Shown piece by piece: positions 2,083 through 43,874 of a stretch of DNA of 64,000 bases; position 1 is the stretch's first letter; every line of letters starts with the position of its first letter. A program made the position numbers and the translations under genes. The stretch comes from a virus, in the IMG/VR virus record IMGVR_UViG_3300032046_000022, positions 3,261 through 67,260 of that record. One strand, written 5' to 3'. Under the pieces are notes generated by a model. That model made no database searches and was not told the origin of the DNA. It worked only from the letters and a program-made list of their open reading frames with translations.

Positions 2083-3867
2083 ATGGCAACACCCACGCTG
2101 GGCAGTCCGCCAACCACGATCAACGCGGCGGATGTCAACACGAACTGGCTGATCACAGTCACTGCCGACTCGGAGTTCAAGAAGGAAGGCACGAACTCCA
2201 TGTCGGGCACCCTGCGTAATGATCTGTCTACGTGTCAGTACGGTCCTGTGACCGGCATCAGCATGGCGAGCCAGCACATGCGATGCTGGATCAACTTCGG
2301 CGCACTGCCCTACTTGGATACTGAAGCTGGCAGCGGGATGGAGTTCTGGGTGACGGACGGGACAAACACAGCCTACTGGATTGTGTTTGGTTCCGACACC
2401 TATTTCGGCGGCTGGAAAAACGTCATCGTTAATTTTGAGGGAACACCCAGTTCAGGGACAAAGCCGACAGGCAGCGTCACGACCTGGGGGTTTCGCTTCA
2501 ATCGCACAGCCGCGCCAGCAAACAAGATCAACACATGGGTCGATGCGCTGCGCTACGGCAACGGCTACGTCATCACAGGTGGGACTTCCGGCGACAAGGT
2601 GACGCTGGACAACATCTACACGGTGGACAAGGCCAGCGCCTACGGAGTTGTGGACAAAGTAGAGGGAGTGTTCTTTGGTTATGGCAAGCTGACCTTCGGC
2701 AACGGCGCGACCACGACCTACATCAACATCACTGGGCAGGTGTTGGTTTTCACCAATTCCAGAGTCGCCACCGGACTGTACGCGCTTATAGGGCAGGGGG
2801 CAGGCTGCGACATCACCATCAGCGCATCGGTGTTCAATTCTTCGGGGACGACGGATACCACGCGGTACGCCATCGACATGGACGACGCGAACCTCGCGGC
2901 CTTGTCGATGACGGCCAATTTCATCACACGTGCGGCGGCCTGCACGTTCAAGAGCGGGCAGACGGTTACAGGTAACACGTTCGACAACTGCGGCCAGATC
3001 ACGCCAGCAGGCGCGAACCTGTCCGGCAGCACGGTCAAGGGCTACGCGGGGACGGCGGACACGGCGGCACTGGTGTGGGACGTGAACACGGACCCGGACG
3101 GCTTGTTGGACAACATAGTGTTCACCAAGGGGTCAGCAGCAGCGCACGCGATTCAGCTTGGGCTGACCAGTCCGACCACGATCAATCTGAACGGGATCAC
3201 GTTCGCCAGCTACAACGCCGCAAACTCGCAGAATGATTCAGCTATACTTGTTTCCCGCACGACGGGTACAGTCACGATCTATGCCAATGGCTGCACGGGG
3301 ACAGTCAGTTACAAATCAGCCGGGGCAGCAGTTGAAATCATTCAGGATTCGGTTGCTTTCTCCGTCACGGTGAAAGACACAGCCGTGCCGCCAGTGGTTA
3401 TCAACAACGCGCTGGTGTTAGTGCTGGCTTCGGACGATACAGGGCCGATGCCCTACAACGAAACGGTGACGAGCATCACGAACGTCGGGACGACAGCAAC
3501 AGTGGCGCATACCGGACACGGCATGTTGACTAACGACAAGGTGCAGATTACAGGCGCGTCGCTGTGGCAGAACAATGGCGTGTTTTCGATCACCAGGACA
3601 AACGACAATGAATACACGTACACCTTGCCATCCGCCCCCGGTAGCAGTCCGACAGGTACGATCAAAGCGACCTACGCGGCGCTGTACGGTCTGACAAGCA
3701 GTGGCGTCGTTAGTAGCAGTCGTGTGTTCACAACGGATCAACCAATTATAGGGCGGGCGCGAAAGTACGGGACATCACCGCCTTACTATCAAACTGCGAA
3801 CTTCACGGGAATCATAGACTCGGTAACTGGATTCGCTGTGACCGTTCAATTACTTCCGGACGCATAA
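2083..3867 (+). CDS. Tail fibre/spike-like protein, 594 aa
   Basis: T/G/S-rich with a beta-helix-like middle; C-terminal TATVAHTGHGMLTNDKVQITGA motif of a type seen in phage tail proteins. Confidence 0.55.
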   Translation: MATPTLGSPPTTINAADVNTNWLITVTADSEFKKEGTNSMSGTLRNDLSTCQYGPVTGISMASQHMRCWINFGALPYLDTEAGSGMEFWVTDGTNTAYWIVFGSDTYFGGWKNVIVNFEGTPSSGTKPTGSVTTWGFRFNRTAAPANKINTWVDALRYGNGYVITGGTSGDKVTLDNIYTVDKASAYGVVDKVEGVFFGYGKLTFGNGATTTYINITGQVLVFTNSRVATGLYALIGQGAGCDITISASVFNSSGTTDTTRYAIDMDDANLAALSMTANFITRAAACTFKSGQTVTGNTFDNCGQITPAGANLSGSTVKGYAGTADTAALVWDVNTDPDGLLDNIVFTKGSAAAHAIQLGLTSPTTINLNGITFASYNAANSQNDSAILVSRTTGTVTIYANGCTGTVSYKSAGAAVEIIQDSVAFSVTVKDTAVPPVVINNALVLVLASDDTGPMPYNETVTSITNVGTTATVAHTGHGMLTNDKVQITGASLWQNNGVFSITRTNDNEYTYTLPSAPGSSPTGTIKATYAALYGLTSSGVVSSSRVFTTDQPIIGRARKYGTSPPYYQTANFTGIIDSVTGFAVTVQLLPDA

Positions 3868-6807: not shown

Positions 6808-7263
6808 ATGATAACGTGGTTGGCGGGAAAGATAGGTGCGCCAATTTGGCTGATGGAAATAGTCCTCGCCGCCGTCGCTGGTGGGGTGATCTTCTGGTAT
6901 ATAAAGCATCGAGAAGCCGTGGCCTACGATCAAGGACACGAAAGCGGGATCAAAGAGAATATAGAGGACCGGCTCAAGCCGTTGAAGAAGGAACTTGAGG
7001 ACAAGCAGGCGGCGGTTGCGGTGGATCGGCAACTGGTGGACAAGGACAAATCTAATGTGGCCGCAGAAAAAAGAAATTTGATTCAGCTGCGATCAGGAAT
7101 GGAACAGGAATATAGTAGACAGCTGAAGATGATTCAGTCTAGAGAGGCGGAGAGCGATGCAAGTATTGACATGCTTTCTGATGCTGAAGTTGTTAGCGCC
7201 TTGCGGTTGCAGCTTATCAGAAACAGAGCAATCATCGAAGCCTCCGCAGACACTAACAAATGA
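6808..7263 (+). CDS. Putative i-spanin
   Basis: N-terminal TM helix plus long coiled coil in the lysis cassette. Confidence 0.55.
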   Translation: MITWLAGKIGAPIWLMEIVLAAVAGGVIFWYIKHREAVAYDQGHESGIKENIEDRLKPLKKELEDKQAAVAVDRQLVDKDKSNVAAEKRNLIQLRSGMEQEYSRQLKMIQSREAESDASIDMLSDAEVVSALRLQLIRNRAIIEASADTNK

Positions 7264-10124: not shown

Positions 10125-11457
10125 TGGATTCGATTCAGGCTTTATAGATTCGCTTTTGCATTTGATGGTTTCGGACGTCAAATTCATGCGCGAGAATGAG
10201 GCCGGACTGAGAGCGGAGCTATTCGTAGACGACTTGCGAATGAAACTGGCTGATATAGCGCTGAAGTTCTACAAGTCGAGCGGTTGCGTGGCCAAGAATT
10301 TGTACTTGGATTTTATAAGCAAGATGTGCGATGATGAGCGTCTTCCAGAGGCGCGGATTCGTTTGCTGAAAGAGAAGGCGAGCGAGATACAGAAGGCGAG
10401 CGCAAATGCGGACTATGTCTCGTCGAGGCTCGAGCAGTATTTCTCTTTTGCAAAACTGAAAACGCTTCGTTACCAGTTGGACCGAATGATTGACTCTGGT
10501 GATGTGGAAGGCGCAAAGGGCGCGGTGAGAGCTACACAAATCGAGATCGGCAAGAATGGTCACAAGCCGGTGGATTATTTCGCGAATATTTCGCAGCGTG
10601 TTTTGCGTCGCGAGACTTTGCAGACGCAGGAGGATGGCGTTCAATTTTTGATTCCGACGCTTCATCAGAAGGGAGTGTTCGCGCATCGTGGCGAGATAAC
10701 GCTCGTGATCGCGCCGTCAAAGCGCGGCAAATCTGTCTTCCTCACCCATATCGGCCGGTGTGCAATTTTCACAGGCCACAACGTCCTGCACGTGAGCCTC
10801 GAGAATCCGATCTCGATGGTTGAGGACCGATATGATGCGATGCTGAGCGGGCTGGAAGTTGAACATTTGCGGCTTCTGGCTGATCGGCTCCAAACTAAAA
10901 TTGAGAAAGCCGCTGAGATGGCAAAAGGTCGACTGTATATTCTTTGGAAGATGGCCAGAACTTATTCGCCGATAGATTTGAAAGCGGATGTGGAGCGGAT
11001 GCGGATGGAGGGAAAACGGATCGACACGGTGATTATAGATTATGGCGAGCTATTGAAGCCGGTGGAGCGCCATGGCGGAGAATCCTCGATGCGCGCTATG
11101 CGCGATGATATTTTTGTGAACTTGCGCGGCATAGCTACAAAGTTGGATTTCGTATGCGTGACAGCTCAGCAGACGCCGTTGAAAAAGCGAACCAAGTTTC
11201 GGATCTATATGGAAGATGGCCAGGAGTCGAGCATGCCGGCTCAACACAGCAGTTTGATTATGACGCTGAACCAAACAAACGAGGAACAAGCTGCTGGTGA
11301 GATGCGACTTTATGTCGATGGATATTGGCATGGTCCGTCTGGTAAGCAAATTGGAGATATTCTTTTGAAACAGGATCTTGCGCGCATGCAATTTTGTCTA
11401 AAAGAGATTCCTGTTTTGCAAGGCGTGGAGGCTGTGACGGCGGCGACTTCGCCATAG
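10087..11457 (+). CDS. dnaB: Replicative DnaB-family (SF4) helicase
   Basis: Walker A APSKRGKS, HVSLEN, VIIDYGELL, TAQQ motifs. Confidence 0.85.
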   Translation: MAAPQNLRMDNFNGFDSGFIDSLLHLMVSDVKFMRENEAGLRAELFVDDLRMKLADIALKFYKSSGCVAKNLYLDFISKMCDDERLPEARIRLLKEKASEIQKASANADYVSSRLEQYFSFAKLKTLRYQLDRMIDSGDVEGAKGAVRATQIEIGKNGHKPVDYFANISQRVLRRETLQTQEDGVQFLIPTLHQKGVFAHRGEITLVIAPSKRGKSVFLTHIGRCAIFTGHNVLHVSLENPISMVEDRYDAMLSGLEVEHLRLLADRLQTKIEKAAEMAKGRLYILWKMARTYSPIDLKADVERMRMEGKRIDTVIIDYGELLKPVERHGGESSMRAMRDDIFVNLRGIATKLDFVCVTAQQTPLKKRTKFRIYMEDGQESSMPAQHSSLIMTLNQTNEEQAAGEMRLYVDGYWHGPSGKQIGDILLKQDLARMQFCLKEIPVLQGVEAVTAATSP

Positions 11458-14551: not shown

Positions 14552-15424
14552 GTGAACGCGGAACAGGTAATTTCTGGGCAACCGAGAGCGCATCGTGGCA
14601 CCGGAGGCGAGTGGACTATTCTGTGTCCATGGCATCAGGAGCATTCGCCCAGCTGTTGCGTGAATGTCGACAAGAAGGTTTTCATTTGTCACGGCTGCGG
14701 CGAAAAGGGCCGGCTCACAAAGCTGATCGCGCGTCTTCAAAACATAACGTGGAACGAAGCGGCGCGAATCGCTGATGAGGCTGTTCATTTTTATAGTAAG
14801 GAAATCGAATCAGGAAAAATTCAATTGCCGAAGGAATTCAGCCGCCTCCCTCGCGGTGGACATTTCGGGCAAATTGCTATGAGTTATCTTGCTGGCCGGC
14901 GGATCACCCAGGAGCAAGTGGTCCGGCATGGAATTGGATTTTGCATCACCGGAAAATATGCCTTTCGAATTATCGTGCCGATTCGTCTGAACGGTGCGCT
15001 GGTGAGTTTTGTTGCGCGCGATTTCACCGGCAAAGCGGAGCGCAAGGTCCGCTATCCAATAGGCGCTCGAGCGGCAGAAGCGATTTTCAATTATGATGCA
15101 GCGCTCGCTCACGCGAAAACTGTCGTGATAACAGAAGGCTGGGCGGACGCGCTTGCGGTCGAGCGCGTTATTCAGCGTGATGGAGTTCTTAATTCTTGGA
15201 CTGCGACCGCAATTGGTGGGAAGGAATTGACGATCGAAAAACGGGAATTGTTTCGACAATTCAAAAATTTTTTGATTGTGCTTGATAGAGATGCAGCGCG
15301 TGAGGCGGCACTTATGCGAGAGCAGCTGGATGCTTTTCGCAATGTGGCAGTGCGCATCGTTTCGGTGACGGCAAAAGACCCGGCAGAAGAGTCTGAAGAG
15401 AGTTTGATAACACTTTTGAGGTGA
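14552..15424 (+). CDS. DNA primase (CHC2 zinc finger + TOPRIM)
   Basis: CPWHQEHSPS...CHGCGEKG; TEGWAD; LDRD. Confidence 0.9.
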   Translation: MNAEQVISGQPRAHRGTGGEWTILCPWHQEHSPSCCVNVDKKVFICHGCGEKGRLTKLIARLQNITWNEAARIADEAVHFYSKEIESGKIQLPKEFSRLPRGGHFGQIAMSYLAGRRITQEQVVRHGIGFCITGKYAFRIIVPIRLNGALVSFVARDFTGKAERKVRYPIGARAAEAIFNYDAALAHAKTVVITEGWADALAVERVIQRDGVLNSWTATAIGGKELTIEKRELFRQFKNFLIVLDRDAAREAALMREQLDAFRNVAVRIVSVTAKDPAEESEESLITLLR

Positions 15425-15434
15425 GGGAGGCTGT

Positions 15435-15647
15435 GTGATAGTCGACACGAAAAGTTTGCTGACGCGGCGCGTTGCTGCGGAGTTGTATGGGGTGGCCGCG
15501 CAGGGACTGGATTACTTGATGCGGCGCGGTTATTTGCGTCCGGTTTTTTCGATGGGGCATACGAAATTGTTTTTGCGCCGGGACATTCTCGCTGTAAAAA
15601 AAATGAATCTCCGTCGTGGCCGGCCAAAGCAAAAAAAGGCTGTGTGA
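15435..15647 (+). CDS. Small helix-turn-helix (excisionase-like) protein
   Basis: LLTRRVAAELYGV...RRGYL...RRGRPK; GGGAGG RBS. Confidence 0.6.
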   Translation: MIVDTKSLLTRRVAAELYGVAAQGLDYLMRRGYLRPVFSMGHTKLFLRRDILAVKKMNLRRGRPKQKKAV

Positions 15648-15683
15648 ATTTGTCGAATAATCCGCCGCAAAACTCAGTGAAAT

Positions 15684-15716
15684 AAATGGCCAAAAGTTAT
15701 TTTTTGGCCATTTTTT
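15684..15716 (+). terminator. Rho-independent terminator
   Basis: AAATGGCCAAAA/TTTTGGCCATTT stem plus T run. Confidence 0.7.
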
Positions 15717-15889
15717 GTGTAAAGGTGTGCCCGTAACTGGTTGATTCTTATCAAGATCTGGGACACAAAAAAATGCATCATTTCTGGTGTGTGTTCATGC
15801 ACCTTCTGTGGATCGACACTGTCCGCGAATGCATAAACATTGGAGAAAATAATCCTTTTTATCTGAAAGCATTAGGCGCAAGATAATGG

Positions 15890-16456
15890 TATGAGATACG
15901 AAATACATACAGGGAGGGGGGTGGCGGGAAGCCAAACGAAATAACTCGCGGAAACGCGACCCCAACTGAGGCCGAAAACGGCTGACTGGGGCAACGCCGG
16001 AAGCGGGAAAAAAGAAAGGGCAGAGAGCGCGGTGGCCTCGGCAGATGGTGAAGTCCGGCGGCGAAATTCCGACCGGAGCCAAACTCTCATAAGAGAAAAA
16101 ACCCAGCGGGAAAAGGGGCGGTAAGACGCCAACCGAAAACAAAAAAATCCAGAGCCAAAACAAACGAGACCCCGAAAGCGATGATCCACGAAAGTGGGAA
16201 GCCAGTAGGCAAAATCTCTGAGGCGACGAGCAGACTGAACTGCTTGCAGACCGGTAACAGTCCGGTTACGGACGAAATCTAGGACTCGTGATACTCCATC
16301 CCAGAATAGCAGCGCAGAATCCAAAGCGATTTGAAACTGCGGCACGCGCGAAAAAACGGATCGACGGTAAGATGGACGGGTAGCGAGCGACGGAGAGTAG
16401 AAAAAACTGATGTGGCGAAGACGCGCGAAAGCGCTGAGCCGTCTCTAAAATGAATT
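15890..16456 (+). ncRNA. Candidate large structured ncRNA (about 570-600 nt)
   Basis: No + strand ORF, purine-rich, many hairpins with GAAA-type loops; ends at the first twister ribozyme. Confidence 0.6.
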
Positions 16457-16533
16457 GCAGAGTGGCGGGAAGGAAACGCATTTCCTTTCCGCAAATGCGC
16501 TGGCTCATGGCGAGTCACCGGTCACAAGTCCGG
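16457..16533 (+). ncRNA. Twister ribozyme 1 (circularly permuted)
   Basis: GCAGAGTG-P1 hairpin-AAATGCGC-P3-CCGGTCACAAGTCCGG; A replaces U at the cleavage site. Confidence 0.75.
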
Positions 16534-16542
16534 AAGGAGACT

Positions 16543-17076
16543 ATGGAAAACGAAAAAGTACAGACGCTCGAGGGAACGTTTCGCAAACTGTTTGCTGTGT
16601 CGACGAACTTGCCGCTGAAGCTCGAATGTGATGTGAAGCCAGTGCTGGACGGAAAGATCCGCGAGAACGCTGAGCGGCTCGCTTTCGTCCTGGCCGGCAA
16701 TGCCTATTTTACGATAGAGAATACTCAAAGCGGAAATCGCTTCACGTTCCGCGTGAGCGCGAACAAAAAGGAAAGCGAAGTCACCCATTGGGTCTGTGTT
16801 CTCACCGGACCGGATAATCTTTCCAATTACACTTTCATTGGCTTTATCAAAGCCGGCGAATTCTTCCACAGTCGCAAGGGCGGCATCGGAAACGATGCAC
16901 AGAGCGTTCGAGTTTTTGCTTGGTTCTTCAAGAATCTGAAAGCAAACTCAGTGCCGGAATTCATTTTGTTCTGGCATATGGGGCGATGTTGCCGTTGCGG
17001 ACGTGCTCTTACAGTGCCGGAATCGGTGGCGGCTGGGATCGGTCCTGAGTGCGCCAGCATGGTGTCTGGATTCTAG
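16543..17076 (+). CDS. DUF6011-like Zn-finger protein
   Basis: GRCCRCGRALTVPESVAAGIGPEC; AAGGAG RBS directly after ribozyme 1. Confidence 0.7.
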   Translation: MENEKVQTLEGTFRKLFAVSTNLPLKLECDVKPVLDGKIRENAERLAFVLAGNAYFTIENTQSGNRFTFRVSANKKESEVTHWVCVLTGPDNLSNYTFIGFIKAGEFFHSRKGGIGNDAQSVRVFAWFFKNLKANSVPEFILFWHMGRCCRCGRALTVPESVAAGIGPECASMVSGF

Positions 17077-43412: not shown

Positions 43413-43874
43413 ATGCCAAGGCTATATTCTCACAGTTTCGATCCTGCAATTAACTGTCTGAAAGACGAGTCGCTCCTGGACGCGCTCGAGCGTGAGCGCA
43501 GGGAAAAGGACGCCAGAATAAACAACCTGGAAAATCAGATCAACAAACTGTCCGCTTTCATCATAGAGAATGTGCCCGGAGAGCCATCTCAGAGTCAAGG
43601 CGCGGTCGACACGGCGATTCGACTTCTGTCCGCGCCAAATAAAGATCGGGAGAACGACGATGCCAGGAAGAACCACGAAGACGACCGGCGGGAAGTTCCG
43701 GAACACATGGGGCGGGAAAGTGAGAGCGCGCAAAACGACAAAAGCGAAAGCGCGCCGACAAATGAATTTGTTGCGAGCTGTCAAGCACGGCTGGAAACCG
43801 AAAACAAAGCGGAAAAGCCGGTAACAAGAAAGTGGAAGCCTCCCAACAACAGCTACAGACCAAAAACAAAATAA
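43413..43874 (+). CDS. Hypothetical protein
   Basis: GEPSQSQGAVDTAIRLL segment; 3' half overlaps another ORF. Confidence 0.45.
   Translation: MPRLYSHSFDPAINCLKDESLLDALERERREKDARINNLENQINKLSAFIIENVPGEPSQSQGAVDTAIRLLSAPNKDRENDDARKNHEDDRREVPEHMGRESESAQNDKSESAPTNEFVASCQARLETENKAEKPVTRKWKPPNNSYRPKTK
43660..43824 (+). CDS. Small highly basic protein (overlapping frame)
   Basis: GGGAG RBS; MPGRTTK...TTKAKARRQMNLLRAVKHGWKP. Confidence 0.5.
   Translation: MPGRTTKTTGGKFRNTWGGKVRARKTTKAKARRQMNLLRAVKHGWKPKTKRKSR

Follow-up and report, generated by a model that had tools for sequence, protein, structure and literature searches.

The biological role of bacterial and phage twister ribozymes is still open, and ROOL and GOLLD, large ornate RNAs of phages and prophages, are without a known function. 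ROOL averages 581 nt, and ROOL and GOLLD often lie near tRNA genes (sections of PMC5737381). We describe here a locus that ties the two subjects together, in a stretch of 64,000 nucleotides (hereafter the window, meaning the whole stretch that was analyzed) from positions 3,261 to 67,260 of the IMG/VR virus record IMGVR_UViG_3300032046_000022, which is 67,260 nt long and has an estimated completeness of 84%. In the window, a leader devoid of open reading frames (ORFs) precedes an array of small genes punctuated by Twister-P5 ribozymes, the first of which would set the 3' end of a ROOL-sized RNA. We consider it probable, at roughly 0.6, that positions 15895-16455 constitute a selected, structured, non-coding leader element of the kind described below.

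The leader resembles ROOL and GOLLD in its size (561 nt, or 599 nt up to the predicted cut), in being phage-borne and non-coding and in its many hairpins. It differs from them in having neither a covariance-model match nor tRNA neighbors (the 64-kb window contains no tRNA gene) and in occupying a 5' position that ends in a ribozyme; moreover, ROOL and GOLLD are widespread, whereas the leader family is tiny and modular. ROOL and GOLLD have conserved multistem junctions and pseudoknots; two viral loci related to the window, L203 and L204, contain a covarying three-way domain and a candidate pseudoknot, and no counterpart of these was seen in the window's copy. Scanning of positions 15600-16700 against Rfam 15 at E values up to 10 detected, twister apart, only chance-level matches, such as sR14 below threshold (E 0.4, 14.6 bits versus 38) and sroB and STnc240 on the upstream terminator (E ~5). 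The C/D-box sRNA candidates sR14 and sR21 were rejected as being at chance level. L203 (7150-7900) and L204 (7100-7760) also gave no ROOL or GOLLD match in Rfam 15 at E values up to 10. Judged by these models, the leader is neither ROOL nor GOLLD, and it probably belongs to a small, uncatalogued family with three distinct members. A preliminary description of this DNA, made from the letters alone, had likened the leader to ROOL and GOLLD without being able to assign a family. The likeness held for size only, with no covariance-model match and no tRNA genes nearby, and the Rfam 15 scan agreed that no family fits the leader.

Three other systems invite comparison. RAGATH RNAs are small motifs, not leaders of 400-600 nt, and are presumably included in Rfam. 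They are candidate structured RNAs near twister and hammerhead ribozymes, mostly of unknown function (sections of PMC11061315). The leader is like them in its twister neighborhood and unlike them in that no Rfam 15 family matches it. The put RNA of HK022 and the nut RNA of lambda are folded non-coding RNAs of phage operons, situated after the promoter and ahead of the first gene; they are ~70-200 nt long, modify RNA polymerase for read-through and remain on the transcript. The window's leader, in contrast, exceeds them 3-8 times in length, and the self-cleaving ribozyme at its downstream end would cut it off. Finally, bacterial twisters and hammerheads have been suggested to process polycistronic transcripts (sections of PMC6765202). 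As in that proposal and in engineered ribozyme cassettes, the leader would have a precise 3' end with a cyclic phosphate, but the released upstream piece is here a conserved non-coding RNA rather than an mRNA. Searches of a library of open-access papers brought up no natural case in which the first ribozyme of an array sets free a large, conserved RNA that is non-coding.

The leader, its parts and the first ribozyme are located in the window as follows.

15895-16455, + strand: leader body, ORF-less, A/G-rich and U-poor (ORF list, composition, no Rfam family)
15904-16240, + strand: part homologous to and collinear with L203 7292-7619 (local alignment, blastn)
16241-16455, + strand: 3' part of the leader without a detectable relative (local alignment, model R1)
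15872-16345, - strand: ORF of 157 amino acids (aa), judged spurious (matches neither Pfam nor PHROG families nor, by tblastn, the leaders of the relatives)
16456-16533, + strand: Twister-P5 ribozyme 1 (RF02684; 39.8 bits versus a gathering score of 37.6)

The leader is a non-coding sequence on the gene strand. No ORF of more than 40 aa is present on the + strand of 15890-16455, where several ORFs of 30-40 aa occur. Since TAA, TAG and TGA are each found in all + frames, no single recoded stop opens the leader, and an alternative genetic code was ruled out. The plausible genes of the window are all on the + strand, and the 157-aa ORF on the opposite strand was rejected. Few gaps were multiples of three (4 of 23 in the alignment of the window with L203, and 2 of 21 in that of L203 with L204), indicating that the constraint on the leader is not on a protein. 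The L203 leader contains a 70-aa + ORF, the start codon of which is missing at the aligned site of the window. The preliminary description had called the region ORF-less, which was borne out, and had named a conserved coding signal on the - strand as evidence that would speak against an RNA; the search for one, by protein family and by tblastn in the relatives, was negative.

The base composition of the leader is extreme, is common to the window and the leaders of the relatives, and is unlike that of coding cassettes. The 561 nt comprise 195 A, 173 G, 130 C and 63 T, so that the RNA is 66% purine and 11% U, with more G than C, a make-up that disfavors AU-dependent RNases, U-tract terminators and Rho loading. 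Its A-T skew (0.54) is the highest among all 400-nt segments of the 64 kb; its GC skew is not above that of the adjoining genes, and purine runs are of ordinary length for this composition. The leader is single-copy in the 67-kb record. A CsrA-type sponge was rejected, as none of four leaders was enriched in GGA or ANGGA (z -0.5 to -2.0), and Hfq (ARN)n sites were likewise not enriched in the leader.

Searches for relatives of the leader by blastn in GenBank phages and with single proteins of the locus found none, and tblastn of a relative of the upstream primase (P0125) had no match in GenBank phages. The primase has only 8 relatives, 41-54% identical, among 5.8 billion clustered proteins. 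Relatives of the leader locus were found through a primase alignment (A3), which gave three informative distinct viral loci, L203, L204 and L205 (primase 52%, 50% and 39% identical to that of the window, respectively) and had no match in species genomes. A metagenome scan found only L212, equivalent to L204, and L215 and L219, equivalent to L205, all identical across the leader.

The elements are arranged alike in the window, L203 and L204: the primase gene, a small helix-turn-helix (HTH) gene (in the relatives 45% identical to that of the window, E 2e-21), the ORF-less, A-rich leader (~7285-7782 in L203, ~7228-7653 in L204), the first twister and the array. An AT-rich stretch separates the HTH gene from the leader in L203 and L204 too. 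Besides its first twister, L203 has 10 Rfam twisters above threshold, and L204 has 5. An ORF-less stretch of 430-640 nt ends at the first twister of the array in L203, L204 and L205. In L205 the ~640 bases (10185-10827, the same DNA in L176, L215 and L219) are preceded by a terminator and, by eye, a promoter of the form TTGACA-17-CATAAT, and lie ~3 kb downstream of the primase gene. Given this distance, what constantly accompanies the leader is the twister array rather than the primase.

Homology between the leaders was assessed by local alignment against 200 dinucleotide shuffles. The window and L203 shared 220 of 367 columns (60% identity over ~337 nt), with a score of 61.5 compared with 21.2 ± 3.5 in the shuffles (z 11.4), and blastn gave 72% over 118 nt. 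The leaders of L203 and L204 were related at z 18.0. Since the window and L204 reached only z 2.0, the link between these two runs through L203. The 5' 110 nt of the window's leader alone gave z 11.5 against L203, and its middle segment alone gave z 1.4 against L203 and 2.3 against L204. The family looks modular from these alignments: the 5' and central parts of the L203 leader recur in the window, and its central and 3' parts in L204. In the neighboring primase genes, third codon positions are 31-36% identical, so that neutral sites are saturated, and the 60% of the leader therefore indicates purifying selection.

Evidence of a fold came from the 3' domains of L203 and L204 in an unguided MAFFT alignment (A5), which contained helices a, b, outer, 3-bp, c and d. 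Standard pairs occupied 69 of the 70 cells of the 35 base pairs, and 15 pairs were changed on both sides; when the partners were slid by 1-3 columns, there were only 0-2 doubly changed pairs and 27-45% pairing. The outer helix closes a three-way junction. G-U occurred in 5 of the 35 pair columns, where the opposite strand would have C-A, and the RNA that folds is therefore that of the + strand. Four further helices defined by coordinates (Y, pseudoknot, e and e') kept their pairing through 1-2 double changes each. The Y/pseudoknot module is present in L203 and L204, not in the window; it includes a candidate H-type pseudoknot (L203 7487-7532, L204 7382-7415) with one compensatory change in each of its two stems and a conserved AAACAAA block as its third loop. 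Structure is therefore proven in two relatives, and for the window's copy it is plausible but unproven. The preliminary description had proposed a search for covariation in homologs; L203 and L204 provided it, while the 3' half of the window's leader has no detectable relative.

All eight hairpins listed in the preliminary description were found at the places given. Those of the window's copy that bear on the comparison are listed here.

15946-15959, + strand: 5-bp hairpin with a GAAA loop (sequence)
15960-15991, + strand: tandem-GA, kink-turn-like hairpin, an internal loop with GA on both strands (sequence)
16117-16130, + strand: hairpin X, 4 bp with a GUAAGA loop (aligned by eye)
16185-16198, + strand: hairpin Z, 5 bp with a GAAA loop (counterparts at the matching place in L203 and L204)
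16228-16245, + strand: hairpin a, between two sequence anchors also present in L203 and L204 (correspondence by eye)
16250-16266, + strand: hairpin b, 5 bp with a 7-nt loop, between the same L203/L204 anchors (correspondence by eye)
16322-16333 and 16423-16434, + strand: GNRA hairpins in the relative-less 3' part (sequence)

Hairpins that carry a GNRA loop on a stem of 4 bp or longer were enriched, with four observed and 0.36 expected, a number that none of 500 dinucleotide shuffles reached; their density was 7.1 per kb in the leader versus 0.97 per kb over the whole + strand of the window. The tandem-GA hairpin is nearly identical in L203 (7348-7381), with all pairs invariant and hence no covariation, and its pattern occurs in no IMG/VR record besides the known carriers. 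In a kink-turn, two helices are separated by a bulge of three bases and, next to it, tandem sheared G-A pairs. Inspection of 15960-15991 by eye shows GA on either strand of the internal loop and an extra base on the non-bulged strand. The kink-turn-like element of the preliminary description is present and its sequence is kept in L203, and by eye it does not look like a textbook kink-turn. Its invariance suits a sequence-specific tertiary or protein contact and is no proof of structure. Hairpin X is found in the window and L204, not in L203; the L204 version is longer and has the same GACGCC strand. For hairpin Z, the MAFFT register of L203 and L204 was off by one, and the comparison thus gives weak support. 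Hairpins a and b, as matched by eye, have canonical pairs throughout in the window, L203 and L204 with different letters, and one of the two consists of 5 bp and a 7-nt loop in all three leaders; the chance of such a shared layout was estimated at ~1 in 100, and we regard it as a hint only.

A motif, AGCGGRAA, recurs in the leaders, at 16002 and 16105 in the window, 7478 in L203 and 7306, 7372 and 7424 in L204. These 2, 1 and 3 copies compare with 0.08-0.18 expected, statistics that are inflated since the motif was chosen after it had been sighted. It could be a repeated contact site or the trace of an internal duplication.

The upstream boundary is marked by two features.

15684-15713, + strand: intrinsic terminator ending the primase/HTH operon, a 13-bp stem plus T run (terminator scan)
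15845-15887, + strand: promoter-like AT-rich region, putative, with GAAAATAATCC and, 35 nt later, AAGATAAT containing GATAAT

The terminator had been placed at 15684-15716 in the preliminary description, and the scan confirmed it within 3 nt. Between it and the leader lie ~170 nt of AT-rich DNA. The proposed -10-like GATAAT is present at 15882-15887, but a sigma-70 scan of 15400-16700 gave no promoter-like site, and a start of the RNA near here is therefore tentative. Upstream of the L204 leader (7182-7225), the same 11-mer GAAAATAATCC stands 36 nt before AAGATAGT, and the two arrangements, GAAAATAATCC with AAGATAAT or AAGATAGT, may represent a promoter or operator common to both phages that escapes a scan for the sigma-70 consensus. 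The + strand of 15714-16700 contains no terminator-like site, and the leader thus has no terminator of its own.

At the downstream boundary, twister 1 is the lowest-scoring of 11 Twister-P5 copies above the gathering score, the other 10 of which follow it as far as 22197, approximately one per small gene and ~270-800 nt apart. Likewise, the lowest-scoring twister of the L203 array is its first one (37.4 bits, slightly under the gathering score of 37.6). Twister ribozymes cleave between a less conserved base adjoining P1, a U, and a conserved A (sections of PMC5408937). In twister 1 the P1 hairpin spans 16465-16492 and A16494 follows the 3' strand of P1, which places the predicted cut at A16493/A16494; the nucleotide immediately before it is A in this copy and T in the other 10. 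The end of the leader at 16493 in the preliminary description coincides with the base 5' of the conserved A beside P1 of this bona fide twister. Two exact copies of the 11-mer GTGGCGGGAAG are present in the 64 kb, where 0.01 would be expected: at 15921-15931, near the 5' end of the leader, and at 16462-16472, where it forms the 5' strand of P1 of twister 1. The repeat is not kept in L203 or L204. From its letters, the 5' end of the leader could compete for, or later pair with, the 3' strand of P1.

We infer that the leader is transcribed, cleaved and functional. It would be read from the + strand after the terminator at 15684-15713, heading the twister-punctuated accessory operon as a long 5' leader RNA, and would run unterminated into twister 1, which would cut at 16493/16494 and free an RNA of ~600 nt. 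In the P5 permutation the entire P1 hairpin lies 5' of the cut and would stay on the 3' end of the leader. The freed leader would thus begin with a 5' triphosphate and end in a GC-rich hairpin that bears a 2',3'-cyclic phosphate, and the DUF6011 mRNA downstream would start with a 5'-OH, followed by the remainder of the ribozyme and GGAG. Our committed guess is that the freed leader itself is the product, a stable folded RNA that would bind a protein or another partner. That the leader acts as a free RNA is a tentative choice, and it is doubtful whether it is more specifically a large modular phage RNA, with a twister-made 3' end, that acts in trans on a host or phage partner. One such role would be that of a decoy or scaffold to which an RNA-binding or defense protein attaches, with AGCGGRAA and the tandem-GA hairpin as contacts. 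A free product is favored because a leader removed by a fast ribozyme cannot control the translation or decay of the mRNA left behind, and also because of the size, the U-poor make-up and the covarying domains of the relatives.

The principal rival, which we rate as unlikely, is a leader that acts in cis, attached or during its synthesis, the cut-off piece being waste. It might shield the transcript from Rho and nucleases, promote read-through of the 6-kb array by RNA polymerase, or guide or delay the folding of twister 1. The 5' untranslated position in all four phages, without a terminator of its own, is what such a role predicts, and the composition fits as well, G over C and little U being suited to an escape from Rho and terminators. 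GAAA hairpins on GC stems recall protein-binding hairpins of the boxB type, and the fast turnover of modules and the non-homologous L205 leader would fit weak constraint. However, 430-640 nt far exceeds the need of known antiterminator or insulating leaders, the severed leader would be unable to act on the translation or decay of the mRNA, and covarying multi-helix domains point to a defined fold rather than to mere bulk. Competition of GTGGCGGGAAG at 15921-15931 for the 3' strand of P1 would also be a cis effect, but the repeat is lost in L203 and L204.

The remaining explanations fit the locus less well. A first array cassette that has lost its ORF, or a neutral spacer, would agree with the spacing of the cassettes (~270-800 nt between twisters), with the relative-less 3' third of the window's leader and with the ordinary folding energies; it is nonetheless improbable, given 60% identity over ~337 nt where adjoining third codon positions retain 31-36%, the compensatory pair changes in the relatives and an extreme composition that the leaders share and coding cassettes do not. 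We consider it highly improbable that the leader is a replication-origin transcript whose purine-rich R-loop primes DNA synthesis, like ColE1 RNA II or the T4 origin transcripts. Purine-rich RNA with a G run favors RNA:DNA hybrids, purines make up 66% of the RNA, with a run of G at the start in the window and L203, and in three of the four phages it directly follows the primase and HTH genes; yet in L205 ~3 kb separate the leader from the primase, and it still immediately precedes the first twister, only short two-copy repeats and no iteron-like arrays are present, the GC skew is not above that of neighboring genes, and the covariation reveals intramolecular RNA helices. Least credible of all is a protein-coding function, through the 157-aa - strand ORF, a recoded + frame or a small peptide. 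The ORFs that would suit it (157 aa on the - strand, several of 30-40 aa on the + strand and 70 aa in L203) face three stops per + frame, gaps that rarely keep the frame, the missing L203 start codon and the absence of Pfam, PHROG and tblastn matches for the - strand ORF.

A number of observations weigh against a selected, structured leader. Folding energies are unremarkable, with z -1.70 for the + strand of the whole region (5 of 100 shuffles as good; - strand, -0.31), -0.80 in L203, -2.13 in L204 (its minus strand, -1.97) and 0.03 in L205. The helices of L203 and L204 were picked while viewing those two sequences, and the 3'-domain model R1 built from them found no match within 15890-16455. 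A second L203/L204 model, R2, for hairpins a and b, found none in the whole window, and when restricted to 16190-16320 (131 nt) it reached 5.1 bits (E 0.067) with only the flanking anchors aligned. By these models the window's copy would lack the L203/L204 3' domain, or have it replaced. RNAalifold on the window and L203 gave only helices of 2-4 bp, with 8 of 31 pairs doubly changed, and these were fitted to that alignment. Window positions 16226-16455 have no relative in L203 (z 0.7) or L204 (z -0.4), and the direct comparison of the window and L204 was marginal, 9 of 200 shuffles being as good. The leader of L205, at the same position before the first twister, is unrelated in sequence to that of the window and without similarity to the other leaders in local alignments against shuffles; together with the rapid turnover of modules, this would also fit a loosely constrained leader. 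Only three distinct family members (the window, L203 and L204) were found in the collections searched, sigma-70 sites in the window, L203 and L204 were at chance level, and no RNA runs were listed among the sequencing runs that contain the window's DNA.

Should the free leader build up, the locus would be a natural case of a phage non-coding RNA that is matured by a ribozyme, and the compact three-member family, with clear covariation in two members, would be suited to biochemical work. The same twister array would dice the operon into single-gene mRNAs. With a purely cis-acting role, it would remain a selected leader of unusual length, U-poor, with G over C and rich in hairpins, the design of which would show how a phage keeps 600 untranslated bases alive.

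The genes that flank the leader are the following.

14552-15424, + strand: DnaG-type primase gene (CHC2 zinc finger, Toprim, phrog_47 E 8e-42)
15435-15647, + strand: excisionase/MerR-like HTH gene, 70 aa, after the primase gene and upstream of the leader
16543-17076, + strand: gene of a DUF6011 protein, the first of the array, with GGAG 6-9 nt ahead of the ATG

Most genes of the array have no functional assignment, and they include those of the DUF6011 protein, a VWA protein and a zinc ribbon. The DUF6011 gene is a widespread cassette: it has 710 relatives, and among the best 80 of 392 viral loci examined for synteny none had a similar leader. Near-identical DNA of the window occurs in five sequencing runs, all of them sediment metagenomes, and contigs from four of these are identical to the window across the leader and thus add no variation.

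An exact twister pattern matched one other record, L002, which has only the ribozyme in common with the window. A loosened Twister-P5 pattern matched at least 119 IMG/VR contig stretches (L085-L202), several with 3-5 copies in a row, indicating that ribozyme-punctuated arrays are not rare in uncultivated phages. The leader had no match among 202 loci that included these stretches, and model R1 matched only its two training sequences among 100 loci (851 kb). Seven arrays had at least three twisters by regular expression and enough upstream DNA; two were the relatives, and in the others the gaps before the first twister were 2, 346, 4, 42 and 93 nt. A long ORF-less stretch before the first twister is therefore not a general rule, with the reservation that the regular expression may overlook earlier copies.

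RNA-motif patterns derived for the leader matched only L203 and L204 in IMG/VR. In species genomes they matched 20 stretches, none similar by nhmmer, which we regard as chance matches. A 63-nt stretch that fits the RNA pattern is nearly identical in four contigs of metagenome-assembled genomes of Victivallales/Lentisphaeria (L249, L250, L255 and L257). It has an A-T skew of ~0, resembles the leader in nothing but the pattern and probably belongs to a conserved part of a gene. The second-highest A-over-T skew of the window (0.52) lies at 43413-43874, on a 153-aa + ORF, which presumably encodes a Lys/Glu-rich protein rather than marking another RNA.

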